DNA from: Naegleria gruberi
Lineage: Eukaryota
Assembly: GCA_000004985.1 (NCBI GenBank)
Contig: GG738890.1
DNA length: 64,000 nt
Strand: one strand, 5' to 3'
In this document: positions 1,896 to 56,096 of the stretch, one piece after another
Layout of the letters: every line of letters begins with the position of its first letter
Position numbering within the stretch: the stretch's first letter is position 1
The notes under the pieces: model-generated
Seen by the model: only the letters and a program-made list of their open reading frames with translations
The model's database searches: none
What the model was told of the DNA's origin: nothing
Made by a program: the position numbers and the translations under genes

Positions 1896-2636
1896 ATGTT
1901 AAATCATGACACGCTAGGAATCATTGCAAGGTTTATCTCTCTTGCTGATTTACCAGCATTTTGTCTCGTCAATAGTGAATGGAATTTAACTATTGAACTA
2001 CATGAAGATTATTCAGTTTTCTGGGTGGAAAAACAAATTAATTTTCTTGAATCTAAAATCTCCCTGTACGAAACTTCCATTGAATACAGCAAGGACCAAG
2101 CTCCCACCATTACAAACGAATGTCCAAGCAATGGTTTATTTTTCTTTGGAATTCAAACCTATACGTATAAGTATGGACACACATGGGCACCCCAAGGAAT
2201 GAAACATCCCAAATTCTTTCATCACAGATTGCAAAAGAGAATTCACACACTCGAAAGCAAAATCTATTCCCTGAAGAAATATAAAACCTATGGATATGAA
2301 GGTTTCTCGCGGGAACATTTGATGAATATTGTCTATTATGAATACTATTGGCTTGCTAGTAATTTAAATTCCTATCTGGCCAAATCCACTGCTCTGCCAC
2401 ATTACATTGGTGCATTGTGTGAGGATTTGGAGCGTCTCGAGTTGGAACGATGTCTTCTCAATAATACGGAAGACTCTGTTCAATTGGCACTCGTCTATCT
2501 TATCAAACTTTTTAAAACACCACCACCTCCCATCTATTTCAAGGATGATGTTTATAGGAAATACATTAACACAATTTTAGAAACAAAACCAATAGGAAGA
2601 ATCATTATATCCACTTTCAATGTATTATTATTGTAG
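1896..2636 (+). CDS. F-box-like hypothetical protein
   Basis: 246-aa ORF with aaaaaaATG context. N-terminus 'LGIIARFISLADLPAFCLVNSEWN' resembles an F-box (LPxE..L..VSK.W) motif. Confidence 0.4.
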   Translation: MLNHDTLGIIARFISLADLPAFCLVNSEWNLTIELHEDYSVFWVEKQINFLESKISLYETSIEYSKDQAPTITNECPSNGLFFFGIQTYTYKYGHTWAPQGMKHPKFFHHRLQKRIHTLESKIYSLKKYKTYGYEGFSREHLMNIVYYEYYWLASNLNSYLAKSTALPHYIGALCEDLERLELERCLLNNTEDSVQLALVYLIKLFKTPPPPIYFKDDVYRKYINTILETKPIGRIIISTFNVLLL

Positions 2637-2727: not shown

Positions 2728-4938
2728 ATGTTTGGAAGTTCTGGTTTTAATGCCGGTGGTGGCAATCCTCAAGGAAATGCTCCTGGAGCCTTTTCATTTG
2801 GTAATAATAACTCTGCTCCAACACAACCAGCTACTGGTGGTGGTGGTGGATTTTCTTTTGGATCATCTACAACTGGAGGTACACAACCATCAACAACTGG
2901 AGGATTCGGACAACCTTCTGCACAACCACCAACTTCTGGAGGATTTGCTTTTGGATCATCTACAACTGGAGGTACACAACCATCTACAACTGGAGGATTT
3001 GGTTTTGGTTCAACACCTTCTACCCAACCAACAACTGGAGGAACAACTGCTGGAGGAACCACAGGTGGATTTGCTTTTGGAAATAAGCCAGCTACCACTG
3101 CAACTACAACACAACCAACCACTGGAGGAATGACTTTCGGTCAACCTTCTACACAACCAACAAGTACTGGAGGAACCACAGGAGGATTTGCTTTTGGTAC
3201 TCAGCCAACAACTGGAACAACTACACAACCAACAACTGGAACCACTGGTGGATTTAACTTTGGCTCTACTACACAACCTTCCACACAACCTACTATCAGC
3301 ACAACAACCACTACACAACCATCTAGTGGAGGATTCAATTTTGGTTCCACAACTACTCAACCAACAACCACACAACCAACTACAGGAACAGCTACTGGGG
3401 GAACTACAGGTGGATTTAACTTTGGAAATACTACAACTGGAACAACTACACAACCTACTACAGGTACAACTACTGGATTCAAAATCGGAACTACTTCAAC
3501 AACTCAACCAACTACTGGAACCACTGGAGGAACCACTGGTGGATTTAACTTTGGAAATACTACAACCCAACCATCAACTGGTACTACAACTACTAGCTCA
3601 ACAACTCAACCAACTACTGGTACCACGGGAGGATCTGGTGGATTTAACTTTGGTTCTACCACAACTACTCCATCAACAGTAGCCCAACCAACTACTACAG
3701 GTACAACTGGAGGAACCACAGGAGGATTTAACTTTGGAAATCAACCAAAACCTGTCACAACACAACCATCAACAACTGGTACTACAACACAACCAACCAC
3801 TACTACTACTGGTACAACAGGAGGAGGTGGAGGATTCAATTTCGGTTCTACTGCTACTACCACTACCCCATCAACCACCAACGCTCCAACTAGTACAGGA
3901 ACAACAGGAGGTGCTGGAGGATTCAACTTTGGAAATAAGCCAACAACAACTCCAACTACTACAACCACTACAGGTACAACAGGAACTACCAATGCAGGCT
4001 TCTCATTTGATAATAAGAGACCATCCGATGAGGGAGGTCCAAATAAGAAGAGATCAGCTGGTTCTGACATTTCCACATCAGGAAATACTACAACTACAGG
4101 CACTACTGGAGGTGGATTCACATTAAACACTGGATCAACAACAACTCCATCCTCTACTCAACCAACAACAGGTACCACAGGAGCTGGAGGTTTCAACTTT
4201 ACAGCTGGATCTGATACAAGCAAAAAGCCAACATTACCATCTTTGGATACAACAAATTCTACTACCACTGCTACTACCGGAGCTACTACAACAGCTCAAC
4301 CAACCACAGCTACCACAACTCAACCAAAACCTATTACTACCACAACTCCTCAAATAGATACATCACAAACTCTTTTAGGAAATAGTACTGTCGAAGAAAT
4401 AATTAACAAATGGAATACAGATCTTTCCACTGATATCAAAGATTTCCACAAAGCAGCTAACCTTGTTTCAAAGTGGGATAAGGATATTATGGAAAATGAA
4501 TCTAAGCTTATTGGACTTAACGATCAAGTTAATAGAATTACAGCAGAACAAAGTGAATTGAAAGGACAATTAGACATGATAGACTCTCAACAAAATAATT
4601 TGGAAAATATCATCAAGGGATTAGAAGATTACATTGAAAAGAATCAATCAATATATGATTCTAGTAAGAGGTCACAATCAGACAGGGAGAGAGAAGAAAC
4701 ATACAAGACTGCCGAATCTATTAATTGCCAACTCGATGCCATGCAACAAACTTTAGATGAAATGGTCATGCAACTTAACAAGACCTTTGAACAATCTGTG
4801 GATCCACATTCTGACTTTACTCGTATTGTGCAAGTAATGAATAATCACTTGGCATGCTTACAATGGATTGAACAACAAGCATCTGGTCTTGACTCTGACA
4901 TTCAAACAAGTTCGAATACTTTGAAACGACTTCAATAA
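2728..4938 (+). CDS. nup62: FG-repeat nucleoporin, Nup62/Nsp1 family
   Basis: 736-aa ORF. The N-terminal ~530 aa are GGFNFG/GGFAFG FG repeats separated by T/Q/P-rich spacers. The C-terminal ~200 aa coiled-coil 'EEIINKWNTDLSTDIKDFHKAANLVSKWDKDIMENESKL...' matches the conserved Nsp1/Nup62 C-terminal domain (from memory). A-rich Kozak. Confidence 0.8.
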   Translation: MFGSSGFNAGGGNPQGNAPGAFSFGNNNSAPTQPATGGGGGFSFGSSTTGGTQPSTTGGFGQPSAQPPTSGGFAFGSSTTGGTQPSTTGGFGFGSTPSTQPTTGGTTAGGTTGGFAFGNKPATTATTTQPTTGGMTFGQPSTQPTSTGGTTGGFAFGTQPTTGTTTQPTTGTTGGFNFGSTTQPSTQPTISTTTTTQPSSGGFNFGSTTTQPTTTQPTTGTATGGTTGGFNFGNTTTGTTTQPTTGTTTGFKIGTTSTTQPTTGTTGGTTGGFNFGNTTTQPSTGTTTTSSTTQPTTGTTGGSGGFNFGSTTTTPSTVAQPTTTGTTGGTTGGFNFGNQPKPVTTQPSTTGTTTQPTTTTTGTTGGGGGFNFGSTATTTTPSTTNAPTSTGTTGGAGGFNFGNKPTTTPTTTTTTGTTGTTNAGFSFDNKRPSDEGGPNKKRSAGSDISTSGNTTTTGTTGGGFTLNTGSTTTPSSTQPTTGTTGAGGFNFTAGSDTSKKPTLPSLDTTNSTTTATTGATTTAQPTTATTTQPKPITTTTPQIDTSQTLLGNSTVEEIINKWNTDLSTDIKDFHKAANLVSKWDKDIMENESKLIGLNDQVNRITAEQSELKGQLDMIDSQQNNLENIIKGLEDYIEKNQSIYDSSKRSQSDREREETYKTAESINCQLDAMQQTLDEMVMQLNKTFEQSVDPHSDFTRIVQVMNNHLACLQWIEQQASGLDSDIQTSSNTLKRLQ
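2770..4330 (+). repeat. Coding tandem repeat array (FG-nucleoporin repeats, ~45-60 nt units)
   Basis: Reiterated 'actggaggaaccacaggtggatttaactttgg'-like units are visible in the DNA. They give rise to spurious antisense and alternate-frame ORFs (2711..3133, 2769..3122, 3010..3453, 3188..3682, 3734..4126, 3741..4130). Confidence 0.7.
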
Positions 4939-5201: not shown

Positions 5202-6878
5202 ATGTCCCAACAACCACAACTCCCATCATCCTACGAGGATAATAACATTGCTACTTCAACTTCTAATGATAAAGTTACGAATTTAGAATTGACTCATGAA
5301 AAGATTATCATTATTGATTTCGGATCACAATATACACAACTCATTGGTCGTAAAGTTCGTGAATTGAATGTTTATTGTGAGATTTATCCATACGATAAAT
5401 TCAATGAAAATACATTGAAGGTGAGTAGTGGTGGTGAGAATGCAGAACAAGATGGATGGTCATTTGTGAGAGGTGTTATTCTATCTGGATCTCATCATTC
5501 AGTTCATGATGAACATTCACCACGTGTCAATGAACAAGTTTGGAATGAAATTCATAAGAGACAAATTCCAATTCTTGGTATTTGTTTTGGTGCTCAAATG
5601 TTAGCTCACTTGTATGGAGAACAAGTTGTTTCAAGTGTTATTAGAGAATATGGACGTGCTCATATTCAATTGACCTCAAATAATGAAGATACAATTCTTA
5701 GTCAATTGAGTGGTGATTCACAAGTTTGGATGTCGCATGGTGATTCAATTCTTATTAAGGAAGAAGGTTCTCAATTGGAAATTATTGCAAAATCTGATAG
5801 TATTCCAGTTGCTGCTTTCAAAGTTAAGGGAAAGAAGATTTTTGGTGTTCAATTCCATCCAGAGGTTCATCACTCACATTGTGGAAAGTTGATTCTCTCC
5901 AATTTCTTGAAACTTGCTGGATGCTCTTGTACTTGGACTCCTTCTCATTTCATTGACGAAACTGTAAAGAATTTGAAACAAACTATTGGAGAAAGTGATC
6001 ACGTTGTTATGGCATTGAGTGGAGGTGTTGACAGTAGTGTTGCTGCCGTTCTCTTACAAAAGGCTATTGGAGACAGATTACATTGTATTTTTGTAGATAA
6101 TGGATTATTGAGATTGAATGAATTTGAACAAGTATTGGAAACTTATAGAGATAGTTTACATTTGAATGTTAAGGGAGTTGAAGTATCTACACTCTTCTAT
6201 GATGCATTGAAGGGAGAATCTGATCCAGAAAAGAAACGTAAAATTATTGGAGCCAAATTTATTGAAGTATTCGAAAAGGAAGCTCAACAAATTTCCAATG
6301 TCAAACACTTGGGTCAAGGAACTATTTATCCAGATGTTGTCGAGTCAATTGGTGGAGCAACTATCAAGAGTCACCACAATGTTGGTGGTCTTCCAGAAAA
6401 GATGCACATGAAAGTGGTTGAGCCATTGAGATTACTTTTCAAGGATGAAGTCAGAAGAGTTGGTAAGGAATTAGGAATTCCAGATAACATCTTACTTCGT
6501 CATCCATTCCCTGGTCCTGGACTTGGTATTAGAATTTTAGGCGATATCACTGCAGAGAAGGTTGAATTATTACAAAAGGTTGATGCCATCTATGTTAATT
6601 CATTGAAGGAAGAAGGATTGTATAATCAAATCTGGCAAGCTGGTGCTATCTTGTTGCCAATTCATTCGGTTGGTGTTCAAGGGGATGGCAGAACTTATGA
6701 GAAGGTTGTTGCTTTGAGAGCTGTTACTTCTGTTGATGGTATGACTGCAGATATTTTCCATTTCCCTTGGGAATTCCTTGGAAAGGTTTCGAATAAGATC
6801 ATTAATCAAGTTAAGGGTGTGAATAGAGTTGTCTATGATATTAGTACTAAACCACCTTCAACTATTGAATGGGAATAA
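5202..6878 (+). CDS. guaA: GMP synthase (glutamine-hydrolysing)
   Basis: 558 aa. Class-I glutamine amidotransferase motifs ('[13 protein letters not shown]', '[11 protein letters not shown]') are followed by the PP-loop '[15 protein letters not shown]' and a GMP-synthase C-terminal domain. ~35-aa N-terminal extension. aaaaaaATGtcc start. Confidence 0.9.
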
Positions 6879-6937
6879 ATCTATTATCGATTCTAAACTT
6901 TTAAAACAAAGAACTCATTCATTTTGACAAGAAAAGT

Positions 6938-8351
6938 TTATGCCTTAACCTTAAAGTTATAAACGTCACCATCTTGAGTAATATATTCTTTTCCTTCCTG
7001 TCTAATCAGATTCTTTCTCTTGGCCTTGGCATCGTCACAATCGCAATCCAAATAATCCTTCCAATTAATGGTTTCTGCCTTGATGAATCCCTTTTCAAAA
7101 TCACTGTGAATTACACCTGCTGATTCTTGAGCAGTACTTCCTTTAGTAACAGTCCAAGCTCTTGTTTCTTGCACACCAACAGTGTAATAAGTAATGAGAT
7201 CCAACAATTCATAAGATGATGTGATAATTCTCTCGAGACCAGTTTGTTTCAACCCATATTCATTCAAAAGTTCAGCTCTTGATTCTGGTTCACATTGAGC
7301 AACTTCAGATTCCAATTGAGCACAGACAATAACTGGTTCAACAGTATTTCCTCTCTTCTTAATATGTTCTATAAGTGCTTGTGTATGTGTGTTTCCTCCA
7401 TCAATAATTGTCTGTTCATCCACATTACAAATATATAAAATTTTCTTGGTTGTTAAAAAGTTAAATTGTTTCAAAATGGCTATTTCAGCAGCTGTCCATT
7501 TAACTGTATAAAGTGAATTTTCCTCAATCAATGTTTCATGACACTTTTTCAATAAATCCATCTTATCCTTTGATGCTTGAATTTCCTTTCTCTTCATATT
7601 TCTTTCAACAACATCCAAATCACTGAGCATTAATTCTGATTCAATAATTTGAACATCTCTCACTGGATCAACACTATTTTCGACGTGTGTAATATTCACA
7701 TCTTCGAAACATCTCACCATTTGTGCAATACAGTTCACTCCTCTAATGTGACTCAAAAATTTGTTACCCAATCCCTTTCCTTCAGCTGCTCCTTTAATTA
7801 AACCTGCAATATCAATCACTTCAATGTAAGTTGGAACAATTTTCTTGGTTTTTGCCCTTTCAGCAAGTAATTCCAATCTTTCATCTGGAACTGTACAGAC
7901 ACCAACGTTTGGTTCAATAGTACAGAATGGGAAATTGGCTGCTTCTGCCTTTGTTGATTCAGTCAGTGCTGTTATTTAATTCGTATATAAAAAGTTTCAA
8001 ATAAATTTCATCAATTTCAATTATTTCACACAAGAATTTCAACAATTTTTATCATAATTGTTAGAGAAATTCAGAAGATTAAAACAACATACCATTAAAA
8101 AGTGTAGATTTACCAACATTTGGCATTCCGACAATTCCAACACTTCTCTTTGCACTACTTCTAGTCGAATGTGATTGAACGGAAGAATTCAACATGACGA
8201 ATTGTTGATTAAATTTAGAAGCAAATGTTGAATTGGCAAAAATTGATGCCGGTGTTGATGAACATTGTGTATTTCGGGTAATGACGGAATGAACACCCAA
8301 TAAACGTTGTTGGAAAACGTTGGTGGTGGAAAAGCGAGAAAGTTTTTGCAT
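6938..8351 (-). CDS. ola1: Obg-like ATPase 1 (YchF/Ola1), 2 exons
   Basis: Exon 1 is 8351..8093. It ends '...GIVGMPNVGKSTLFN' plus one nt (P-loop), then donor GTATGT. The intron is 7969..8092 (124 nt, GTATGT...AACAG). Exon 2 is 7968..6938 and continues 'ALTESTKAEAANFPFCTIEPNVG...IDIAGLIKGAAEGKGLGNKFLSHIR...' with a TGS-like C-terminus. Joined length 1290 nt = 430 codons, in frame. The two ORF-track pieces (8079..8351, 6938..7876) are these exons. taaaaaaaaATG start. Confidence 0.8.
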
Positions 8352-11475: not shown

Positions 11476-11593
11476 GGCTACGGCCATATCACGATGAATG
11501 CACCTCATCCCGTCCGATTTGAGAAGTTAAGCATCGTCGAGCCACATCAGTACTGAGGTTGGAGACAACTTGGGAACCTGTGGTGCTGTAGTC
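11476..11593 (+). rRNA. rrn5: 5S ribosomal RNA
   Basis: 118 nt beginning GGCTACGGCCATATCAC. Conserved 5S elements are present: the loop A/box A region, 'CCCGTCCGATTTGAGAAGTTAAGC', and '...GGGAACCTGTGGTGCTGTAGTC'. The 5' and 3' ends form the 9-bp helix I. A T5 run follows as a Pol III terminator. Identical second copy at 24727..24844. Confidence 0.85.
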
Positions 11594-11823
11594 TTTTTCA
11601 TTTTACCTTATGGATTATTTAATTATTTAGATATTGATCTGTATTAGGTTATAAATTCTACATTTGAAAAAAAGCAACATTCAATCCATGAAATCGTCCT
11701 TATAAACAGCCTTATGAAAGCCTTAGTGACAATTTCACTCTTGAGCTTTCGGTTTGTTTCAAGGTGGTTCTTATGTGAAATAACTTTTTCAAAATCCAAC
11801 ATAATGTTTCTATTATTTAACAG

Positions 11824-12284: not shown

Positions 12285-12500
12285 CTACCACTTTTTGAAT
12301 TGTTTGTTTCTCATTTCTAAGGTGTTATGTGATTGAGATTTGAAAGTTTTGCTTGTTTCACTTCCAATAGAATTCAATGTTTTGTAATCAATTAAATTTC
12401 TTCTTCTTGTTCCACCAACAATATTATCCAGAGAAATTTCGGAATTAAATTGTGAAGTATTATTGGAGGAATTATACATATTTCTTCTTGTTGAGACCAT
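12285..12500 (-). CDS. Small basic S/N-rich hypothetical protein (paralog A)
   Basis: 71-aa ORF with A-rich ATG context. It shares the motif NIVGGTRRRNLIDY with the divergently oriented ORF 12728..13027. Confidence 0.3.
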   Translation of the reverse strand: MVSTRRNMYNSSNNTSQFNSEISLDNIVGGTRRRNLIDYKTLNSIGSETSKTFKSQSHNTLEMRNKQFKKW

Positions 12501-12727
12501 TTTCTAATTGTTATTTTGTTATTTTCTTTTGTTGTTGATTTTCATTAAATTTCCTTTCATCAAAATATTAATAGAAAAATTCAAATTCTTGTGATGAGTG
12601 GAAAATCCACCAAAAATTGGAATCACAAAATTAGTGGAAATCATCATGGAAATAAATAGATAATTGATCGGATGATGAAATTTCCACAACAAAACAAAAT
12701 AACAAAATAACAAAAACTAAGAGCAAA

Positions 12728-13027
12728 ATGCCAGCTAGAAATACCTCATCAAATACTTCTTCATCTTCCGAAGGTAGAATTCCAACAAAAACAGAATGGA
12801 CAAGATCTAAACCAATTGATTTATCTAAAAGATTACCATTATTTGATATTGATACTTCAAATATTATAAGTGGAACAAGACATCGTAATAATATTGATTA
12901 TCATCATGCAAATTTAAATGGTAAACAAATTTCAGTGAAAAGATCTTCGAAAAATTCAATTGAAAAGAGAGCTAAACAACAATCGAACACCACTAATAAG
13001 AAGATTACCAAATCGAAAAAGATGTAA
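12728..13027 (+). CDS. Small basic S/N/K-rich hypothetical protein (paralog B)
   Basis: 99-aa ORF with caaaATG context. It contains NIISGTRHRNNIDY, 11 of 13 identical to the motif in ORF 12285..12500. Confidence 0.3.
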   Translation: MPARNTSSNTSSSSEGRIPTKTEWTRSKPIDLSKRLPLFDIDTSNIISGTRHRNNIDYHHANLNGKQISVKRSSKNSIEKRAKQQSNTTNKKITKSKKM

Positions 13028-17759: not shown

Positions 17760-18034
17760 TTTTTTAGTGTTGGTTGAGAGATTTGTTATTATTAGAAGAA
17801 GAATTTATATTCTTCTGTTGTGTGGATTAAAATGGTGAGAAGGTTAATTTGAGAGATTCTAATCTTGTTCCATTTTTTTTAATATTTAATTTTATTAAAT
17901 ATTATTTATAAGATTAAAAATGGAAGGATAAACCAAAATGTCTTCATAAGTCTCTTAAAAATACAAGATTCAAGAGGTTTTAGTGGGATTAATGTATTTT
18001 ATGAATTTTAAAGTGGAAGATAGATTAATGTGTC

Positions 18035-18160
18035 GGGGTCTTGGCGCAGTCGGTATTATTAATAGATTTTAGGGTAGGTAACGCTCTCAATCTACCTCAA
18101 CGTCGGTAGCGCGTAGGTCTCATAATCCTAAGGTCGTGAGTTCGATCCTCACAGACCCCA
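18035..18160 (+). tRNA. tRNA-Met(CAU) copy interrupted by a 53-nt insertion in the D-loop
   Basis: Identical to the intact 73-nt tRNA-Met at 36917..36989 and 25622..25694 (minus), except for an insertion at 18055..18107. The insertion is ATTATTAATAGATTTTAGGGTAGGTAACGCTCTCAATCTACCTCAAC plus GTCGGT, which duplicates the 6 nt preceding it. CTTTTG follows the 3' end. Confidence 0.6.
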
Positions 18161-18320
18161 ACTTTTGCCCTTTCTTTTGCTTATTTTGCATCCTATCGAA
18201 CGATCATCACCATAGTTTGATCACCAATATCTTTACAAGCAAAGGGAGCAATTTCTAGCTGGTTTGTTTTGCTTGTGGTTAACGTTGATATTACAGTTGA
18301 GTAACAAACATAAAATAAAA

Positions 18321-24726: not shown

Positions 24727-24844
24727 GGCTACGGCCATATCACGATGAATGCACCTCATCCCGTCCGATTTGAGAAGTTAAGCATCGTCGAGCCACATCA
24801 GTACTGAGGTTGGAGACAACTTGGGAACCTGTGGTGCTGTAGTC
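24727..24844 (+). rRNA. rrn5: 5S ribosomal RNA (second copy)
   Basis: 118 nt identical to 11476..11593. Followed by TTTT. Confidence 0.85.
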
Positions 24845-25087
24845 TTTTACTTATCAATATTGCTTATTGGTCAATCGTCCAGTTGCTTCTCTCATTCTTT
24901 CCATTATTCCAAACAAAGTGTTAACCACTGATAAAACTGCTCCATCATCAATAATGATCAATTAAGATTTGCTACATGTTCAAAATAAATGACATTATTA
25001 TTTATTAAAATACCACAAACATTTTGCCATTCTTCACTCTAGAACAAACAGAATAAAAACAATGTTCCTTATGCAATTCTGAAAACC

Positions 25088-25275
25088 ATCTTTCTCGGCC
25101 AATTGGCTTTGATCGAGTGTAGTATCTGTTCTTTTCAGTTTAATAGCTGAAAGCAGCCCACGGGTTGCATTACTATTAACTCAATTTTTTGTAGGGATCA
25201 GGGTTTGAGCTTGATTGCTCACTTTGATTGGTTTCAATCAGACATTGCACAAACCGTCAGATTAGGAGCCACCCA
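25088..25275 (+). ncRNA. U2: U2 spliceosomal snRNA
   Basis: ATCTTTCTCGGCCAATTGGCTTTGATCGAGTGTAGTATCTGTTCTTTTCAGTTTAATAGCTGA... matches the conserved U2 5' region, including the branch-point-interacting GUAGUA. Sm site AATTTTTTG. 3' stem-loops end ...GGAGCCACCC. Length ~187 nt. Confidence 0.85.
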
Positions 25276-25621
25276 ACTCTTTTAATTAATTGAAAAATCA
25301 TTGAACAAAGACAATCTCAATCAGAGTAAAATTGAGCTTTTTACAAATTCCGAGCATGTATGATGACGAAGATATAGTAAGCATGCTGAGGGACTCAAAA
25401 CAGTCATTGATTGGTGTTGATATTGAACAATTTCTTGTCGACATTTGAATGCAGTTGGCAAGTGCGAAAAGGAAAATGAGAAGTGGAACGATTTCAAGAA
25501 TGAATTATTTGATTAATTGAAAGTAGAAACAATTAGGAAATTGATGTTGTTTTTTGTTCTCCTTCATAACATAACTATTGGGATTAGCAACACTTAAAAG
25601 CTATTGAGAGGATGCAAAAGT

Positions 25622-25694
25622 TGGGGTCTGTGAGGATCGAACTCACGACCTTAGGATTATGAGACCTACGCGCTACCGACTGCGCCAAGACCCC
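25622..25694 (-). tRNA. tRNA-Met (CAU), elongator-type
   Basis: GGGGTCT-TG-GCGC-AGTCGGTA-GCGC-G-TAGGT-CTCATAA-TCCTA-AGGTC-GTGAG-TTCGATC-CTCAC-AGACCCC-A. Anticodon CAT. T-loop TTCGATC. No initiator-specific A1-U72, A54 or A60. Confidence 0.85.
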
Positions 25695-36916: not shown

Positions 36917-36989
36917 GGGGTCTTGGCGCAGTCGGTAGCGCGTAGGTCTCATAATCCTAAGGTCGTGAGTTCGATCCTCACAGACCCCA
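36917..36989 (+). tRNA. tRNA-Met (CAU), elongator-type
   Basis: Sequence identical to 25622..25694. Shares a 52-nt upstream block with the interrupted copy at 18035. CTTTTG terminator. Confidence 0.85.
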
Positions 36990-48982: not shown

Positions 48983-49408
48983 ATGGAGGATCATAATAAT
49001 TCAATGTTAGTTTCACGTTCGGAATCATCCCTTTCGTTAGTTTCCAATCAAACCAATGAACCACTTCATAAGAGAATGTCGAGTGGAGTTAGTTTGGATG
49101 ATTCCATTGAAATTCTGGAGGAAGGAGCAAATTCTCATCATGGTGATTCCAATGATGTAGATGATAATCATACAAAAATACAAACAACAACAATTAATGG
49201 ACAACGAAGAATTGTGGGCAAACAGCAGCAAGAAAAGAAACATCTTCCTCATGAGCCTGGAATGTTCTCTACATTTGTTGATTCGTTTTTGGAATATGTT
49301 GAAGATGTGTTTGGATTGGGAGGTGATGCAAATAATAATAATGGAGAACATCAAACTCATGATCCTACTGTGGATGCAAAGGCTAATTTTAGTAGTTTTA
49401 TCAATTAA
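48983..49408 (+). CDS. Hypothetical acidic protein
   Basis: 141 aa. aaaaaacaataATG context. Its stop is immediately followed by the 175-bp repeat element. Confidence 0.35.
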   Translation: MEDHNNSMLVSRSESSLSLVSNQTNEPLHKRMSSGVSLDDSIEILEEGANSHHGDSNDVDDNHTKIQTTTINGQRRIVGKQQQEKKHLPHEPGMFSTFVDSFLEYVEDVFGLGGDANNNNGEHQTHDPTVDAKANFSSFIN

Positions 49409-49446
49409 TGAATATCATTTGATGAAGAGTATATTATGAATATCAT

Positions 49447-49622
49447 ATGATGAAGAATAATTTAGGATTTAATTGTAAATATTGTAATTATCAATGAATT
49501 TGGATTATGAATAAACACGTCTCTATTGAGAATAGAGCTACGTGAGCTTGACTTTTCTCTACTTTTAAACTTTCAGCAATTAATTGATAGCATTGACTCT
49601 TTTTCCAATTGTTCTTTTTCAT
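49447..49622 (+). repeat. 175-bp direct repeat element, copy 1 (AATAAA + hairpin module)
   Basis: ~97% identical to 53886..54059. Contains AATAAACACGTCTCTATTGAGAATAGAG (AATAAA followed by a perfect 7-bp inverted repeat CTCTATT/AATAGAG). Confidence 0.7.
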
Positions 49623-49794
49623 CACTAGTGAAAGTTGAATTAAATTTGAAGATGTTCATTTCCATATCTAATGATTTCAATTGTTTTGCCTTACTAATAA
49701 CCTCCAATGTTTTATCATTTGTACTTGAAAAACCATATTGACATCCCAAACAAGTAGAGCTGCATGTTGCTATCTATTCTAACAACACAATAAT

Positions 49795-51422
49795 TCATAA
49801 TAACACACAATTTGGTTCTGATTTTGCTTTGTAATTTGTCACCTCAACTTTTGTCTTATCAATTAAAAGAGTTTTCAATTGATCTATTTTAGATTCATTT
49901 CTAATATTATTTGCTTGAATAGCAAGATGTTTCAATTGTTTCATTTCATTAATGTATTCAGCTCCAATATTTCCAATTCTATTATAACTAACATCAAGTT
50001 CGGTCAATTGTGTCAGTTGGCTTAGAAATTTACATCCTTCATCAGAAATATTATTAAGAGCCATGCTAAGATCAGTCAATTGGGTCAGTTCACTAATATT
50101 TTTACATCCATTATCGGAAATATTATTTCCATTTAGATATAGAATAGTTAGAGATTTCAGATTGGTGATGGATTTGATTGAATCATCGCCTATTGAACTT
50201 GAGCAAATGCGTAAGTCAGTTAATTGTGTCAATGTAGATAAATATTCGAAACTTTCTGCGTTAATCTTATTGTAACTGAATCTGAGACAAGTTAATTGTT
50301 TAAATTGACTGATATGTTTAGCTCCTTCACTTCCTATCTCATTATGACTAATATCAAGTTCAGTTAAATTACCAAGTTGACTAATATATTCCGTTCCTTC
50401 ATTACGAATACTATTATTATTAATTTCCAAAAACATCAACTGTTCCATTTCACTAATGAATTTAGCCCCTTCAGCGCCAATTTTGTTATCATAAATGGAA
50501 AGTCTTGTCAATTGTTTGAGTTTTCTAATTTTCTTACATCCTTCAGCTCGTAGATTATTCTCTATTATGGTAAGAGTAGTTAAGTTTCCCATCTCACTAA
50601 CATATTCGACACCTGTTTCACCAATATAATTGTTACTGATATCAAGATTGGTCAATTGTTTCATTTCACTTATGGATTTAGCACCTTCTTCACCAATTCT
50701 ATTACAATTAATTCCAAGATTGGTCAATTGATTGAGAGCTACAAGATATTTAGCACCTTCTGCACAAATGTCATTCACACCAATATTAAGAATTTTCAAT
50801 TGGCTTAATTGACCTATAAATTTAGCACCTTCTGCTCCCAACTCATTTGTTCTAATATCTAGATTAGTCAACTTTAATTTGGTCAAATAACTAGCTCCTT
50901 CAGCACTTATATTATTCCCATAAAGATTAGCACTTGTCAATTCTTTACATTCGCTCAAATATTTCACACCTTCATTTCCTATTCTATTGTAACCTATTTC
51001 AATACTTGTCAATCTTTTAAAATAATTTAATTATTATTAAATCCAATTGATATTGTCGATTTGTCTTCCACTTTTAGAAAAGTTACATTTTGTAAAAATT
51101 GTGATTTTTGCATTCGTGAATTCTTGTTGTAAAGTTTCAATGAAAGTTTCAATTTTTTTACAATATTTAACCACTGTTTGGAAACAAGTGCGCAATTTAG
51201 AATTAGAAATTTAAAATTTCGAGAATGACACAAGAAGGAAAGAGTCTCTAATAGTGTATCGTCTGAGAATTGTTTCGAATAATTGTTTGTTTCTTCCGAA
51301 TTATTAAACATTAATTTTTTACACTCTATTCCGATACGTGGCGATGATGATTCTTGTTCGGAATGAGAGGATTTAAAATTCGAAACTGGGACTGAAAAAT
51401 TCTTATTGTTCAATTCACTCAT
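49795..51422 (-). pseudogene. F-box/RNI-type LRR gene disrupted by a frameshift (or sequence error)
   Basis: The upstream ORF 51422..51027 encodes the F-box-like N-terminus ('DTLLETLSFLCHSRNFKFLILNCALVSKQWLNIV', atagaaaaaaATG). It stops at 51027-51029. The LRR frame is open only from 51030 downward and the ORF-track start at 51012 is a TTG. There is no plausible GT...AG intron. The break lies in an A/T run aataataattaaatta. Confidence 0.5.
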
Positions 51423-51556
51423 TTTTTTCTATTAACTTTCATACTGTAAAATATATTTTACAATTTTGTAAGTGTCTTAGCAAAAAATGATGAATAAATT
51501 CTGTTTAAAAACCTTAATTTAAATGGTTTTCAAAAAATGCAAAAAACCTTAAAAAA

Positions 51557-53854
51557 ATGGCAAGACGAGCGAAAAAACGTTTTTCAAAAACTAACCACAA
51601 GAGATCTGCTGCAGCAGAAGAGGACAAAACCACAAATGTTTCCAGCAGACTAGTCTCGGGATGCCTTAATGATACAAATAATACAACAATAAAACAAGAA
51701 GAACCATCACAACAATTAAAGAAATGTAAAATAGAAGTTGTAGAAAAATCTATAGCAGATGTAGATTTAAGGCTACGAAATATATATCATGATGAAGAAG
51801 CTTCACATCGACAACAAGAAATATTAGGGAATTCATTCGTAAGATACCTTCCACCTGTTTTTGGAAAAACAACACACGAAAGCCTTAAAAATCTCACTGT
51901 ACGAAAGGAGAAGATATTTAGGTATGAATTATTCCCTGAATGTATTTATCCACCAGAGAAACAAGATCTTGGTGAATTGATTGCAAATTTGATAAAAGTT
52001 AGTGTGAAAAGTCTTTTGGAAGGTAAATTATCTGAAAAGGAGCAAAAATTAAGAATTACTTTAACTGGAAGATCAGGTGATGGAAAAACTTTCTTACTAT
52101 ATTATTTAGCCAATAAGTGTAATGATTCCTGTATTTTTATTCCAATTCATCTTTCAATTAATGAGTTTTTTTATAGAGCTAGAATTCCTGATGAAGATGC
52201 TCTGTTGATTGACTGTGGAGTGTTAATTTGCTCCTATTTGACCTATGTTCAAGAGTTTTTGGAGAGTGGCATTACCAATCCTTACAAAATTATGGAACTG
52301 TTCAACAATACATATTCAAGAAAGGTAATGGAGAGAGCAATAACATTTGCAAGCACCAACAGTAATATGTTAGTACGAGTAGAATGTCAAAAATTGAGTA
52401 ACAAATTTGGTAAATATCCAGTGTTTGTTATTGATGAAGCACATATCATGGCCTCATCTCTTGCCAACAAAATTTCAAATGATGATGGAAAAAGAAATGA
52501 ATCTGCATTGACTGCAATAACGAGAGTGGCAGGATCAATCCCTGTAATTTGTTGCTCCACCAAGATATCCGGAGTTAATCTAGGAATAGATGTTTCTGGT
52601 TCTGAGCATTTGTACAAGTTTAATTTAACAACAGATATTATTGATATACCAAAGAGAGACATTTCCCCAAGCGATTTCATTTCCTTCTTTATTAACCCTT
52701 TTGAGAATGAAGATGTAAAACTCTTTACAAATATGCTTCTCTCTGAATGCCCAGTCCGTATTCATACAATGATTATAGATGAGTACTGGTTAGTTATGGA
52801 CAAAAACTTCCAAACAGATTCAAACTCCAAAACATGGAATCTGAAGAAAGCTATTAAGGGAGTGCTCACAAATCAAATGCCTTCTTTAGGAAAAAAAATG
52901 AAAGAGGAGTTTGATAATATTACTAATGAACGGCTAAAAAAGCTATTATTCTTTGTTTGGACAGGTTTAAATCCTAACATTGAAAACAATTCAGATTTTG
53001 ACTCGAGTTCACTAAAGAGCGTGGTACAAGAATTCAACCTCCATTCACATGATTTGTCTCAAGAGTATGAATTGTTCTCTCAACAAATGCTGCATCTGGG
53101 ATGTGGTAAACCAAAGGACGGAACTTATAGATTTTCTGATGCTTTTTTTAGGTTTGGATATTTTGAATCCATGAGAGATGATAATTGGTACACATATGTT
53201 GAAAACTTGGGGAGCTGTATGAAACACGTAGTACAATCTCATGTTGGGAAGAAGGGATTTCTTTTTGAAAGAGTTATTGGATTATTGTTAATGAGCATTT
53301 CAAAATCATTAAAGGGGAAACCACTTACAAGTTGCGTTTTGTTTGCAGGGGCAAAAGGCACTTGGTTGGATAATTACACAATCACCATTAGATCAGTAGA
53401 AATGACCCCAAAATATTATGAGCCATTGATTTTGTTTGAAATAACGGACATTATTGCCTGTTCAATTGACGAAAATTCAAGTTGCGATTTATTTCTTTCC
53501 TTAGTTCCTATCAGCAAAGATGAAAAGTTTGTTCCTTGTTTAACTTCTATCAAATTTCTAAAGACATTGCTTGGTGAAGAGGAAATTTTCAAGTCAACTT
53601 TGATTGAAAATCAACAAACAAATGTTTTATCATTTAATGAGTTGATGATAAGAAGTAATCACCACGCCAAAAGAAGATTAAGACTTGGATTTGCTGCCAA
53701 TTCTGTAATTGGACATGATGTTAAAATATCAAATGATGATGACATTCAAATATTGTTTTCCCTTAATCACAGATTATTATTTGATTATTTGAAAGAAAAT
53801 TTGGATTTTCTTCATGAAGCATTGATGAATCTCAATACCATTATTCATCGATAG
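51557..53854 (+). CDS. P-loop NTPase (AAA+/STAND-like) hypothetical protein
   Basis: 765 aa. Basic N-terminus (MARRAKKRFSKTNHKRS). Walker A 'LTGRSGDGKTFLLY'. Walker B-like 'PVFVIDEAHIM' ~110 aa later. Long C-terminal domain without recognised motifs. aaaaaaATG start. Confidence 0.5.
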   Translation: MARRAKKRFSKTNHKRSAAAEEDKTTNVSSRLVSGCLNDTNNTTIKQEEPSQQLKKCKIEVVEKSIADVDLRLRNIYHDEEASHRQQEILGNSFVRYLPPVFGKTTHESLKNLTVRKEKIFRYELFPECIYPPEKQDLGELIANLIKVSVKSLLEGKLSEKEQKLRITLTGRSGDGKTFLLYYLANKCNDSCIFIPIHLSINEFFYRARIPDEDALLIDCGVLICSYLTYVQEFLESGITNPYKIMELFNNTYSRKVMERAITFASTNSNMLVRVECQKLSNKFGKYPVFVIDEAHIMASSLANKISNDDGKRNESALTAITRVAGSIPVICCSTKISGVNLGIDVSGSEHLYKFNLTTDIIDIPKRDISPSDFISFFINPFENEDVKLFTNMLLSECPVRIHTMIIDEYWLVMDKNFQTDSNSKTWNLKKAIKGVLTNQMPSLGKKMKEEFDNITNERLKKLLFFVWTGLNPNIENNSDFDSSSLKSVVQEFNLHSHDLSQEYELFSQQMLHLGCGKPKDGTYRFSDAFFRFGYFESMRDDNWYTYVENLGSCMKHVVQSHVGKKGFLFERVIGLLLMSISKSLKGKPLTSCVLFAGAKGTWLDNYTITIRSVEMTPKYYEPLILFEITDIIACSIDENSSCDLFLSLVPISKDEKFVPCLTSIKFLKTLLGEEEIFKSTLIENQQTNVLSFNELMIRSNHHAKRRLRLGFAANSVIGHDVKISNDDDIQILFSLNHRLLFDYLKENLDFLHEALMNLNTIIHR

Positions 53855-53885
53855 CCATTTATGATTGTGAATCCACATCCTTATT

Positions 53886-54059
53886 TGATGAATAATTTAG
53901 GATTTAATTGTAAATATTGTAATTATCAATGAATTTGGAGATTACGAATAAACACGTCTCTATTGAGAATAGAGCTACGTGAGCTTGACTTTTCTCTACT
54001 TTTAACCATTCAGCAATTAATTGATAGCATTGACTCTTTTTCCAATTGTTCTTTTTCAT
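53886..54059 (+). repeat. 175-bp direct repeat element, copy 2
   Basis: See 49447..49622. Begins 31 nt after the stop of 51557..53854. Confidence 0.7.
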
Positions 54060-55835
54060 TAGGATGGACATGATTTCATGAATTTGGAGTCGATAAATTT
54101 TACACAATTCACTTGATGGGATGCCTAGTGGTTGACCTTTGTAATATTGGATTTTCTCATCTGAAAACATTTCATCTCTTTGGTGAGCTTCATGATTAAG
54201 TAAGCATTTAGGATAGGAAGTGCATTGATACAGGAGTGTACCAACTTTGTACGTATGAATATCAAAACATTTACCACAATGACACTTTCTATATTGCACT
54301 AAATCTCTTTTCAGTCTTTTCAAAACCATAGCCTTCCCACAATAGCATTGTACCTTGTATTGGTTAGTTTTCTTGTCTAGAAATGGTTTCGTTTTGGCTA
54401 GACCATTGTTTGGCTCTGTAACTTTCAACTTCTTGGCTGGTTGGCAATAATTTTCAGAGTGCTTGCTTGCTCTACTACTAAGCACTGCACTCTCGAATGC
54501 CTCTTGTTGACTCTGACCAGAGAATAATTGAGCTACAATGTAAGTTGAATTATTCTTCAATAGTTGAGATAGTGTTGGTTTTTCAGAACAAGTGCTGTTT
54601 TTGAGGACCTTAATTAAATCAAATAATCTTGATCGATTTTTCACAGAGGGATCGTTTTGAAATGTTTCAAATTCTTGTTCGTTCATTTTAGAACAGGTAC
54701 TCCACAAACTTTCTAATTGTACAATTTCCTTTTGGAGAATATTCTTACAGTATTGATATCTAACTTCGAGTTCTTTCATTTCATATTCACATTCGTAGTA
54801 CTTGCTCAAAACTGAAATGATAAATGGCTTATCGGAATTACTCGATTTCTTATAGTCTTCAAAGTGAACAACGAACGGAATGAGGAATTTTGGAGTGGCT
54901 TGAATCCATCCTCTATATTTCATTTTATGAATGAGGAGATAGAATGGATTTTTCAATTTCAATCGCTGATTGTTGGTGTCTCTCATGATGAATCCTTCAA
55001 TTCTCAATCTTGCTTCTACATTCTCATGAGTAGAGATGAATGTATCCAAATGTTTGAGAGCTTGTTCCAGACTTGAAAAATTCTCAAAACGTTTTGGTCT
55101 CTTCCAATTCTTCAACTCGGCTCTCTTTCTCAATTTCAAGCAAATTTTATCAACTTGATCCCTGGAGAGTTCCTTTCCACTTTGTGTCTCTACAATTGTC
55201 AGTAAGTAAATGACAGGATTCTGATAGATTTGAACAATTTCATTTTGTGAGGAACACATTTCCAAACAATAGGTCAGTGATGGATCCAAATCCTTTCCAA
55301 TCTCATTCAATTCTACTCCGCCACAAATTTCCACAAATAGCTCTCTATATGTTTTCTGTGTTTCACTTCCAATTGCCAAATAATCCTCACAAAAGTTGTG
55401 TCTCGTTGCAATCATCCACTCTCCCTCATAGCAAAACATTAAAAGAAACGTTCCATCTTCCTTTGTCTCCAAACTGAAATTAGAATAATCAAACAATTTG
55501 GATTTCTCCAATGATGGCGACTGATCCTGTTCCAAAAACACCAATTCTCTATCATCATTTAGTCCTCTAATATTCGGAGAGGACGAATACGAATGGTGCT
55601 GATTAAAAAACCTGGTCATTCCTCTCGCCACAATTTTCCACGAATTTAATTCCAACACCAAGCCTCTGCATTCATTGACAATTTGTTCATCACGTGGCGA
55701 TTGAATATTGTCATAATTTAATACAATTAATGGGAAGGAAGTTTGATCGGGATGTGTTGATGAGCGAATTTTGTATTTTTCATGGAGAGTCGTGATGGAT
55801 TGACCCTTCTGTTGGAGGAATTGTTGTGTTTGCAT
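53904..55835 (-). CDS. ATP-dependent RNA/DNA ligase-like nucleotidyltransferase with C-terminal Cys-rich (zinc-ribbon-like) region
   Basis: Covalent nucleotidyltransferase motifs are present: motif I 'KEDGTF' (KxDG), motif IV 'EGFIMRD', motif V 'LKLKN'. C-terminus 'CYCGKAMVLKRLKRDLVQYRKCHCGKC...CTSYPKC'. The ORF-track start at 55922 is a GTG. The ATG at 55835 has aaaaaaaATG context (643 aa). Confidence 0.5.
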   Translation of the reverse strand: MQTQQFLQQKGQSITTLHEKYKIRSSTHPDQTSFPLIVLNYDNIQSPRDEQIVNECRGLVLELNSWKIVARGMTRFFNQHHSYSSSPNIRGLNDDRELVFLEQDQSPSLEKSKLFDYSNFSLETKEDGTFLLMFCYEGEWMIATRHNFCEDYLAIGSETQKTYRELFVEICGGVELNEIGKDLDPSLTYCLEMCSSQNEIVQIYQNPVIYLLTIVETQSGKELSRDQVDKICLKLRKRAELKNWKRPKRFENFSSLEQALKHLDTFISTHENVEARLRIEGFIMRDTNNQRLKLKNPFYLLIHKMKYRGWIQATPKFLIPFVVHFEDYKKSSNSDKPFIISVLSKYYECEYEMKELEVRYQYCKNILQKEIVQLESLWSTCSKMNEQEFETFQNDPSVKNRSRLFDLIKVLKNSTCSEKPTLSQLLKNNSTYIVAQLFSGQSQQEAFESAVLSSRASKHSENYCQPAKKLKVTEPNNGLAKTKPFLDKKTNQYKVQCYCGKAMVLKRLKRDLVQYRKCHCGKCFDIHTYKVGTLLYQCTSYPKCLLNHEAHQRDEMFSDEKIQYYKGQPLGIPSSELCKIYRLQIHEIMSILMKKNNWKKSQCYQLIAEWLKVEKSQAHVALFSIETCLFVISKFIDNYNIYN

Positions 55836-56096
55836 TTTTTTTGGCTTGATTTTACAATTTCGATTTTGAACTTGTGAGATACTTAAAAGAATATTATTGT
55901 GTATTGAAAGAATAAATATCACAACATTTGCTTTAAATGATTTGTAAGTTTAACATCTCTGACAGCTTTGATGTCAATGTTCTGGTGTGAAAATCTTGAA
56001 AAAGGTCTTGCTATCAAACGAAGCAATCCTCGGCAACTTGAGAACTCATTATTTCAAAACGTTGTTGCTTGAGTCTTGTTATGGAGTTGTACGAAA

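Follow-up and report, generated by a model that had tools for sequence, protein, structure and literature searches.

Why do two nearly identical stretches of DNA, in direct orientation, bracket a 4.3-kb gene-bearing segment in the genome of Naegleria gruberi? The window (the whole stretch of DNA that was analysed, 64,000 nucleotides) comes from strain NEG-M. A BLASTN alignment of the two copies, referred to below as A (172 bp) and B (174 nt), spans 174 columns, of which 4 are mismatches, and contains a single 2-bp gap (96.55% identity, E ~1e-77); this bears out the ~97% identity reported in a first-pass annotation of the sequence. The features of the locus are as follows.

48983..49408, plus strand: orf141 (NAEGRDRAFT_51567, XP_002673473), 141 aa, an exact match to an N. 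gruberi protein
49408..49463, plus strand: tandem duplication of 28 bp (86% identity), spanning the stop codon of orf141 and the first 13 nt of copy A, present in both strains examined below
49451..49622, no strand assigned: copy A, relic of a ligase tail adjoining orf141, with a 2-bp deletion at ~49504 and TGG replaced by AGT at 49569-49571
49623..53885, no strand assigned: the segment of 4263 bp, probably inserted, which carries a divergent pair of genes, F-box/LRR (minus strand) and NTPase (plus strand), and is absent from the locus in three related species
49573..51422, minus strand: F-box/LRR gene remnant, made of an F-box ORF (51027..51422), an LRR ORF (49795..51012) and a terminal ORF (49573..49749)
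51557..53854, plus strand: orphan P-loop NTPase, 765 aa, with Walker A GRSGDGKT and Walker B VFVIDEAH
53886..54059, minus strand: copy B, the functional copy, which comprises the final 51 codons of an RNA ligase gene (MKKNNWKK...NYNIYN), its stop codon (53904-53906) and 18 nt of 3' flank
53904..55835, minus strand: the RNA ligase gene, 643 aa from ATG, in an ORF that can be extended to a GTG at 55922

Copy A had been given a start at 49447, which is 4 nt too far left: the BLASTN edge is at 49451, and this edge of the repeat can be placed only to within ~6 nt, since the copies can also be aligned with a gap of 3 nt. Copy A lies between CATATGA on its outer side and CACTAGT on its inner side, and copy B between CCTTATT (inner) and TAGGATG (outer). 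Identity drops to background right outside both edges and the flanking ~1 kb are not paralogous; the self-BLAST between the two regions gives the 174-column match only, so that a simple tandem or segmental duplication is rejected. Each copy does lie, as had been described, just 3' of a plus-strand stop codon, 42 nt after that of orf141 for copy A and 31 nt after that of the NTPase gene for copy B. The self-BLAST reveals no copy of the repeat in the 64-kb window beyond A and B. The other near-identical repeats of the window are 5S rRNA, tRNA-Met and related genes, which have no relation to the 172-bp repeat.

The repeat, which had been taken as intergenic sequence, is coding. Read on the minus strand, copy B encodes the C-terminus of the RNA ligase; both repeats derive from the final 51 codons of this gene and its stop codon. 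The ligase consists of a T4 Rnl1-type ligase domain (Pfam RNA_lig_T4_1, 1.1e-22, 81.5 bits versus a cutoff of 28.3) and a C-terminal DUF3268 zinc finger (2.5e-7, 31.5 bits versus a cutoff of 28.4; residues 557-662 of the ORF 53904..55922), part of which is encoded by copy B. N. lovaniensis, N. fowleri and a third, metagenomic Naegleria-like species have orthologs with the same two-domain architecture (56%, 54% and 51% identity), and in all three the counterpart of the repeat occurs once, within the ligase coding region and at the corresponding position of the gene. Copy B is aligned in frame with the 3' ends of the N. lovaniensis and N. fowleri ligase genes, and the alignment runs on past the right edge of the repeat, whereas that of copy A with the orthologous ligase does not continue past its right edge.

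In these three species the ortholog of orf141 lies directly downstream of the ligase gene, in convergent orientation, with 249 bp (N. lovaniensis), 219 bp (N. fowleri) and 39 bp (the third species) between the two stop codons, and there is neither an NTPase nor an LRR gene between them. This direct adjacency of the outer genes in three related species, where the 4.3-kb segment is lacking, supports one option of the first-pass annotation, according to which the repeats are the boundaries of a recently inserted gene cassette. Judging from this gene order, the ligase is the likely ancestral tail-to-tail neighbour of orf141; the polarity derives from comparison with three other species, together with the argument that a 97%-identical repeat can hardly date back to the origin of the genus, rather than from a rooted phylogeny. 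Only on its outer side does each duplicate continue into ancestral sequence: orf141 is on the left of copy A, and the body of the ligase gene is on the right of copy B.

We propose, with a probability of about 80%, that the 4263-bp segment was inserted between two convergent genes in the N. gruberi lineage, and that the repeat is the resulting duplication, long and of the target-site type. In the ancestor, the minus-strand RNA ligase and the plus-strand orf141 would have been arranged tail to tail, with ~60 bp between their stop codons. The incoming fragment would have carried two genes, F-box/LRR and an intact one for the orphan P-loop NTPase. Two openings would have been made in the target at a distance of 172 bp, one lying 18 nt beyond the stop codon of the ligase and the other 51 codons inside its coding region, and the stretch between the two openings would thereby have come to flank the insert on either side. 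Of the possible routes, a staggered break that was filled in and then closed by end joining may be the most likely. A template switch during replication would give the same product, and staggered break, template switch and single-crossover integration of a circle are indistinguishable from the product. Copy B would have stayed with the body of the ligase gene, and copy A with orf141, later decaying in the ligase frame.

The opposite polarity would be that the segment and both repeats were already present in the Naegleria ancestor, and were deleted elsewhere by recombination between the repeats. Direct repeats are able to mediate such a deletion, and the sampling beyond N. gruberi consists of one species lineage and one metagenomic species. 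We consider this very unlikely, since the ligase tails of different species are only ~75-80% identical at the DNA level versus 96.6% for the two N. gruberi copies, gene conversion is not evident, the decay of copy A is slight, and a distant relative of the NTPase in the sample of the third species is on a contig that carries neither the ligase nor the orf141 gene.

The differences between the copies can be polarized using the outgroups. Copy B and the outgroups keep a conserved tryptophan codon (TGG) and have no gap, so that the AGT and the 2-bp deletion of copy A are derived states. The deletion shifts the ligase frame, and the only ORF left in copy A is one of 44 aa on the minus strand (49491..49625). 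Copy A has thus lost the ligase frame, although its decay is slight in the alignment with copy B and the outgroups. It is, from these alignments, a decaying relic; copy B keeps the ligase gene intact.

The locus is also covered, in part, in a second N. gruberi strain, about 99% identical, whose sequence comes from an independent metagenome assembly. This assembly reproduces the NTPase/copy B/ligase and orf141/copy A junctions with their copy-specific bases, that is, 2 of the 4 repeat junctions; the copy A/LRR junction is seen in one assembly only, the metagenome contig ending inside copy A. A scan of the metagenome for the pattern of an empty-site N. gruberi allele gave 0 matches, and the insertion is already present in this strain, the only other one that was sampled. 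In principle, a false duplication could have arisen from a collapsed or chimeric join, considering that the sequence is a draft scaffold and that the metagenome contig breaks inside the repeat. Such an artefact is scarcely credible, since an independent assembly of another strain recovers junctions with copy-specific bases, and since 4 differing sites and an indel are not expected between the copies of an artefactual duplicate.

The copy-A-specific bases and the 2-bp deletion are common to both strains, over the part of copy A covered by the contig of the second strain. The duplication is therefore older than the split between the two strains. Copy B has no difference between the strains over 174 nt, and the RNA ligase gene has 8 synonymous and 5 nonsynonymous differences. 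Homogenization by gene conversion would make the copies more alike than orthologs, without paralog-specific differences; this pattern is not observed for copies A and B. Since the differences between the copies, including the indel, are fixed in two strains, gene conversion is not needed to explain their similarity. The high identity rather results from the youth of the duplication, the divergence between A and B being 2.3%, versus roughly 2-3% between strains.

This bears on another option, namely that the repeat is a 3' UTR or terminator module (AATAAA and hairpin) shared by orf141 and the NTPase gene, and kept alike by selection or gene conversion. The motifs concerned are the following.

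49474..49568, plus strand: putative poly(A) module of copy A, with UGUA at 49474-77 and 49483-86, AAUAAA at 49510-15 and the U-rich stretch CTTGACTTTTCTCTACTTTT at ~49547-66
53909..54005, plus strand: putative poly(A) module of copy B, with UGUA at 53909-12 and 53918-21 and AAUAAA at 53947-52
49516..49544 and 53953-53981, no strand assigned: hairpin-forming inverted repeat CTCTATT/AATAGAG with a GAG loop, extended by CACGT/ACGTG
53903..53908, minus strand: ATTAAA overlapping the ligase stop codon, a candidate "dual-use" stop codon and poly(A) signal

In N. gruberi, poly(A) sites consist of AAUAAA with upstream UGUA and downstream U-rich elements, the median 3' UTR is 39 nt, and dual-use stop codons are known (PMC11529991). 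Both copies contain this set of motifs downstream of a stop codon, with UGUA 27 and 36 nt upstream of AAUAAA and a U-rich stretch 30-50 nt downstream, which suggests that the plus strand of copy A may provide the poly(A) site of orf141, and that of copy B the poly(A) site of the NTPase gene. AAUAAA is located 101 nt after the stop codon of orf141 in copy A and 92 nt after that of the NTPase gene in copy B; these distances exceed the 39-nt median, so that closer, non-canonical sites may serve instead. On the other strand, the copy A counterpart of ATTAAA (49468-49473) is 99 nt after a TGA that stands in the LRR frame. AATAAA is not conserved in the other species, nor is ATTAAA.

The perfect 7-bp inverted repeat that had been noticed after AATAAA is present in both copies (AATAAA at 49510-49515 and 53947-53952, followed each time by CTCTATT/AATAGAG), and gave the repeat the look of a terminator. 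This inverted repeat falls within the ligase codons for HVALFSIETC. At -10.7 kcal/mol (z = -1.24), the fold of the hairpin is equalled by 22 of 200 shuffled sequences and does not exceed chance expectation; N. lovaniensis and N. fowleri do not conserve the inner stem, and no U run directly follows. An intrinsic hairpin terminator is rejected on these grounds. To our knowledge, such terminators are not used in RNA polymerase II termination.

The position of both copies 31-42 nt after a plus-strand stop codon, and the order of UGUA, UGUA, AAUAAA and U-rich elements, which is that reported for N. gruberi poly(A) sites, are what a shared 3' UTR would predict, and this part of the earlier proposal stands. 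The part that invokes gene conversion does not, because the differences fixed in both strains imply that no conversion has occurred since they split. Moreover, the sequence is a ligase coding tail conserved in frame across species, which alone accounts for copy B, the youth of the duplication accounts for the identity, and the hairpin is at the level of shuffled sequences. All in all, a shared module as the reason for the repeat is unlikely.

The insertion that we favour does not imply a mobile element. The direct repeats could have been MITEs, solo LTRs or the LTR-like ends of a 4.6-kb transposon carrying the NTPase: genes are bracketed by direct repeats, the ends read TG...CA(T), and AAA_22-like ATPases are present in some transposons. 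The NTPase does match AAA_22, as well as nSTAND3, in Pfam, both matches being sub-threshold; but it is a single-copy orphan. Only the protein itself was retrieved among 5.8 billion proteins, a search against 1.84 billion representatives gave 9 matches with 29% identity at best, and a structure model of low confidence (pLDDT 48) matches generic AAA+ folds only.

The weak inverted similarity that had been seen between the ends of the repeat is not significant: the best end-to-end inverted alignments score 8 (copy A) and 6 (copy B), values that are matched or beaten by 5% and 32%, respectively, of random 172-bp windows of the same sequence, and there is no terminal inverted pair. We looked for target-site duplications around copy A, copy B and the whole unit (CATATGA / TAGGATG) and found none, and Pfam detects no reverse transcriptase, integrase or transposase domain within the insert. 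Considering also that there are only two copies within 64 kb, and that the repeat is C-terminal ligase coding sequence, single-copy and at the same gene position in three other species, a mobile element of any of these kinds is highly improbable. The repeat is an ordinary rearrangement scar, neither a mobile element nor a dedicated terminator.

The outcome nevertheless resembles the target-site duplications of transposons, in that the target sequence is directly duplicated on either side of the insert and each copy is joined to its ancestral flank. Transposase target-site duplications are typically 2-20 bp long. The N. gruberi duplication is unlike them in its 172 bp, and in an insert that is single-copy and has neither terminal inverted repeats nor a transposase.

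A parallel may also be found in Drosophila rearrangements, where staggered breaks produce breakpoint duplications of 46 bp to 1.9 kb (Ranz et al. 2007, PMC1885836), a range that includes 172 bp. As at the Drosophila inversion breakpoints, the duplication affects non-repetitive DNA, tens to hundreds of bp long and often part of a gene, and one copy is functional while the other decays by substitutions and small deletions. However, the duplicates of Drosophila are in inverted orientation on either side of an inversion, whereas those of N. gruberi are direct and flank an insertion; N. gruberi is a heterolobosean amoeba, and the mechanism is here deduced from its product only.

The locus also recalls the overlapping convergent 3' ends and dual-use signals of compact protist genomes (PMC11529991): the AAUAAA of orf141 would lie antisense within ligase codons, the ligase stop codon is inside ATTAAA, and the convergent stop codons would be ~60 bp apart. 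The difference is that the overlap zone is duplicated in N. gruberi, so that four gene ends abut two copies.

The second gene of the insert, F-box/LRR, has a weak Pfam match to F-box and another to LRR_6 (1e-39). It had been called a pseudogene, and is indeed frameshifted at the F-box/LRR junction (FNNN/LNY), where the alignment to a paralog is unbroken, which points to a 1-nt frameshift and not to an intron. A donor locus for the 4.3-kb fragment was searched for and not found. The terminal ORF is preceded either by two in-frame stop codons or by a 69-nt GT..AG candidate intron (49842..49774). Its last 16 codons and its TGA stop codon (49573-49575) are inside copy A, in a frame that differs from that of the ligase. 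The LRR reading frame thus probably now ends at this TGA, and the gene appears to have been cut near its 3' end.

Copy A is like other gene relics in being a 3' fragment of the ligase gene that contains a frameshift, lacks a conserved codon and is free of constraint in the ligase frame. It is unlike them in that its other strand is probably still the 3' UTR of its neighbour and that the frame of the incoming gene ends within it; because of this probable 3' UTR role, and of the incoming reading frame that terminates there, copy A may not be functionless.

The first-pass annotation had described near-identical direct repeats in this region, and they are borne out by a repeat finder and by BLASTN, which align copy A (49451..49622) with copy B (53886..54059) over 174 columns with 4 mismatches and one 2-bp gap (96.55% identity). 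Self-BLASTN finds no third copy in the 64-kb window, whose remaining near-identical repeats are 5S rRNA, tRNA and related genes. Similarity falls to the background level at both edges of the repeat, which excludes a larger segmental duplication, including the simple duplication with paralogous flanks that had been named as a refuting case. Each copy indeed begins just past a plus-strand stop codon.

Position of the repeat copies and of the motifs that they carry
Copy A start, plus strand: 42 nt past the stop of ORF 48983..49408 (orf141, 141 aa)
Copy B start, plus strand: 31 nt past the stop of ORF 51557..53854 (P-loop NTPase)
49510-15 and 53947-52, plus strand: AATAAA
After AATAAA, in both copies: inverted repeat CACGT-CTCTATT-GAG-AATAGAG-ct-ACGTG

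The AATAAA and the inverted repeat that had been noted are thus present in each copy, but the hairpin is not beyond chance (-10.7 kcal/mol, z = -1.24, with equally good folds in 22/200 shuffles). A hairpin terminator is rejected, since the fold is not significant and the stem is not conserved; a known RNA family inside the repeat is rejected as well, for lack of an Rfam match. The weak inverted similarity of the repeat ends is also at chance level, being matched by 5% (copy A) or 32% (copy B) of random 172-bp windows. A separate 28-bp tandem duplication (86% identity, 49408-49463), found in both strains of N. gruberi considered below, runs from the last base of the orf141 stop codon to the first 13 nt of copy A.

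The point overlooked in the first-pass annotation is that the repeat is coding, on the minus strand. Copy B is crossed by the minus-strand ORF 53904..55922, of which it holds the final 51 codons (MKKNNWKKSQCYQLIAEWLKVEKSQAHVALFSIETCLFVISKFIDNYNIYN) and the TAA stop, plus the next 18 nt; the right edge of the repeat is exactly the ATG of the Met codon that opens this tail. The encoded protein combines a T4 Rnl1-type RNA ligase domain (1.1e-22) with a DUF3268 zinc-finger domain at its C-terminus (2.5e-7, residues 557-662), both above the Pfam cutoffs, and the position of the tail relative to the latter implies that the repeat covers the C-terminal portion of DUF3268. Orthologs of the ligase with both domains occur in N. 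lovaniensis (56% identity), N. fowleri (54%) and a metagenomic Naegleria-like organism (51%). In copy A, a 2-bp deletion relative to copy B disrupts the ligase frame, and a 44-aa ORF remains. Repeats in Naegleria that look intergenic can be antisense coding sequence, as this locus demonstrates.

The gene order in relatives tells what the locus looked like without the insert. The product of orf141 exactly matches XP_002673473 (NAEGRDRAFT_51567), and that of the pseudouridine synthase ORF XP_002673553, which assigns the window to a 350-kb scaffold of N. gruberi strain NEG-M. In all three relatives (3/3), the ortholog of orf141 lies directly downstream of the ligase gene, in convergent orientation.

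Gene downstream of the ligase in relatives, with the distance between the two stop codons
N. lovaniensis (locus L001): 12418..12921, 249 bp
N. fowleri (locus L002): 12506..13024, 219 bp
Metagenomic Naegleria-like species (locus L008): 2041..2415, 39 bp

The orthologs of orf141 have in common the motifs RSESS.S and EPG.F...VDS..EY.ED, and the C-terminal ANF.S is also found in the metagenomic species. In N. gruberi, on the other hand, copy A, 4263 bp (49623..53885) and copy B stand between orf141 and the body of the ligase gene; subtracting the insert and one copy leaves the two stop codons about 60 bp apart, which resembles the arrangement in the metagenomic species. Among the options listed in the first-pass annotation, that of an inserted cassette is therefore the right one, since relatives devoid of the insert have the ligase gene and orf141 adjacent. 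This pair is the sole synteny retained around the locus among the Naegleria species compared. In N. lovaniensis, a 972-aa ORF with OrfB_IS605 and Cas12f1-like TNB domains (TnpB/Fanzor-like; 13331-16381 of L001, PYSW02000054.1) lies about 400 bp past the orf141 ortholog, and is absent from the matching place in N. fowleri.

The two copies have had different fates. Upstream of the ATG edge, copy B still aligns with the 3' ends of the N. lovaniensis and N. fowleri ligase genes, whereas copy A does not. At the sites where the copies differ, the outgroups side with copy B: at 49569-71, copy A has AGT and the outgroups have TGG (Trp), which amounts to two substitutions in one codon, and the 2 bp missing from copy A are present in the outgroups. 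This agreement with copy B indicates that copy A is a decaying relic and copy B the working gene end.

A second N. gruberi strain, from the metagenome assembly ENA ERZ929261, is 98.9-99.5% identical in the ligase region. One of its contigs (L003) contains the pseudouridine synthase, the ligase, copy B and the 3' part of the NTPase gene; another (L007) contains orf141 and the initial 82 nt of copy A. Copy B does not differ between the two strains, and the 82 nt of copy A have the identical 2-bp deletion and the A-specific bases, plus one private substitution. It follows that the insertion and the decay of copy A are older than the strain split, and that the copies have not been homogenised since; the gene conversion proposed earlier is wrong, the A-specific deletion and bases being kept in both strains. 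The second-strain data (copy B, and the states of copy A on L007) also speak against an assembly artefact. The divergence between copies A and B is 2.3% plus the indel, a value similar in magnitude to the neutral divergence of roughly 2-3% between strains (intergenic and synonymous). The insertion is thus young, having taken place within the N. gruberi lineage, yet it is older than the split of the two strains.

As for the nature of the event, the insert contains no transposase, reverse transcriptase or integrase, and its ends have neither inverted repeats nor short target duplications. On these grounds the MITE and LTR readings are rejected, and the mobile element considered in the first-pass annotation goes with them. 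JGI metagenomes, scanned for an exact 38-nt pattern, contained 0 matches to an empty-site allele or to further copies. On every feature that could be tested, the repeat is not a MITE, an LTR, a simple segmental duplication, a conversion-homogenised repeat or an intrinsic terminator; it has the features of an insertion-associated target duplication, and copy A those of a gene relic.

The product that is observed is a 172-bp single-copy target directly duplicated on either side of foreign DNA, the outer side of each copy being contiguous with the ancestral flank. Such a product is expected when a staggered break is filled in and then repaired by end joining. The identical final structure would also be expected from a replication template switch, or from a tandem duplication of 172 bp that received a long insertion at its junction. 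Duplications of 46 bp to 1.9 kb (median 321 bp) are known at Drosophila inversion breakpoints, and, like copy A, these also decay through substitutions and small deletions (PMC1885836). The survival of the event makes sense: one cut lies within the coding region of the ligase, whose DUF3268 tail would have been lost without the duplication. The locus adds a further case to a familiar class of rearrangement scars and does not define a novel element type. To our knowledge, such scars have hardly been described in N. gruberi. It offers a clean, datable case of the placement of new genes in a very compact protist genome with the neighbours unbroken: the duplicated overlap zone kept the ligase coding region intact, and probably the poly(A) site of the neighbour too. 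Its value is local, for N. gruberi genome evolution and 3'-end biology.

The insert is a divergent gene pair; the P-loop NTPase gene and the F-box/LRR pseudogene reported in the bracketed segment are both present.

Genes of the insert
51557..53854, plus strand: NTPase, 765-aa ORF, Walker A GRSGDGKT, Walker B VFVIDEAH
51027..51422, minus strand: F-box ORF
49795..51012, minus strand: LRR ORF

The NTPase has sub-threshold Pfam matches only (AAA_22 and nSTAND3). It is an orphan, whose sole match among 5.8 billion proteins is the 572-aa reference model of the same gene, which is spliced differently; among 1.84 billion representatives there were only nine weak relatives, all of them unnamed metagenomic proteins of at most 37% identity. 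A pattern scan of IMG/VR and of JGI metagenome contigs gave no relative, and a PDB profile search no match; AlphaFold yields a poor model (pLDDT 48), for which Foldseek returns only generic AAA+ folds (E >= 7.5e-3). A Crinkler-type effector, with an NTPase and a restriction-endonuclease fold, is an assumption that we mention as a candidate idea and do not claim. The closest relative found at the DNA level (37% identity) is at 6000-7194 of a contig, L005, from JGI sample 3300002220, which is also the source of L008. This contig has no ligase or orf141 gene, so that the NTPase family exists in other heteroloboseans too, at a different locus. Between the strains, the NTPase has 15 nonsynonymous and 9 synonymous changed codons in 1207 nt, compared to 5 and 8 in 2019 nt for the ligase, so that the NTPase is either fast-evolving or under relaxed constraint.

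Past residue 554 the reference model of the NTPase no longer follows the uninterrupted ORF, a mispredicted intron being the probable cause; in both strains the ORF stays open over all 765 aa, and residues 549-673 align with homologs. As for the ligase, the protein search did not find an exact 643-aa NCBI N. gruberi model (53904-55835), and the sole exact protein match comes from an ENA metagenome. The locus thus flags likely errors of the reference annotation, a 572-aa NTPase model with a spurious intron and a ligase model missing in the protein search.

The F-box/LRR gene is indeed damaged. Its alignment with an N. gruberi paralog (P0027) is continuous over the junction of the F-box and LRR ORFs (FNNN|LNY vs FNNNLMYY), which shows that a 1-nt frameshift, and not an intron, splits them; the intron is therefore rejected. 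The frameshift, at about 51025, falls within an AT-rich run; a sequencing error could account for it. Downstream, the LRR frame leads, beyond two stop codons or a 69-nt GT..AG candidate intron, into ORF 49573..49749, which is still LRR-like and whose last 16 codons and TGA stop lie within copy A, in a frame other than that of the ligase. The LRR gene seems to have been truncated close to its 3' end by the left boundary of the insert, whose right boundary is 31 nt past the NTPase stop. No close F-box/LRR paralog that could mark a donor locus was found, the best match having 53% identity over 31% of the query.

In N. gruberi, AAUAAA is the main poly(A) signal, with UGUA upstream and a U-rich stretch downstream, the median 3' UTR is 39 nt, and "dual-use" stop codons occur within the poly(A) signal (PMC11529991). 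On the plus strand, each copy has two UGUA, 27 and 36 nt upstream of AAUAAA, and CTTGACTTTTCTCTACTTTT downstream. The earlier idea of a shared duplicated 3' UTR is partly right: it has this motif set in its favour, and loses its gene conversion part. The first AATAAA is at +101 nt from the stop of orf141 and +92 nt from that of the NTPase, both distances exceeding the median 3' UTR. On the minus strand, the stop codon of the ligase gene sits within an ATTAAA, 18 nt before the end of the repeat; the ATTAAA of copy A is 99 nt past the TGA of the LRR frame. Neither hexamer is conserved in the other species compared: AATAAA corresponds to ligase codons TGT TTA TTC, which are TGT TTG TTC in relatives.

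The motifs on both strands make it plausible that the duplicated zone may act as the 3'-end region of all four abutting genes, and that the NTPase may have captured a copy of the orf141 poly(A) site. We give a probability of roughly 0.3 to the tentative reading that the 172 bp are a two-stranded 3'-end cassette, whose duplication would have let a foreign two-gene fragment survive in a 60-bp convergent gap. Copy A would then supply the ends of orf141 and of the LRR gene, and copy B those of the NTPase and ligase genes, each on one strand, which would make the locus a concrete example of gene establishment via a duplicated bidirectional terminator.

Regarding the rest of the window, its low GC, dense ORFs and scattered tRNAs suggested a giant-virus origin, which is ruled out: the mimivirus promoter motif AAAATTGA is not enriched, and there are exact protein matches to N. 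gruberi. Two 5S rRNA genes (11476-11594 and 24727-24845) lie 13 kb apart in 159-bp repeats that are 98% identical. The second adjoins a U2 snRNA gene (25086-25276), followed by a tRNA-Met (25622-25694), which makes a small RNA-gene cluster amid protein-coding genes. At 17983-18168 there is a third tRNA-Met(CAT) copy, called by neither ARAGORN nor Rfam, whose upstream 52 nt are as in the copy at 36917-36989 and whose D-arm is split by 46 nt between 7-bp direct duplications (GTCGGTA); candidate explanations are a short insertion with its target-site duplication, or an atypical intron. Last, a 736-aa internally repetitive ORF (2728-4938; self-BLAST about 65% identity at offsets of about 90-340 nt) occupies a stretch where GC is raised (0.41) and the skew strong.
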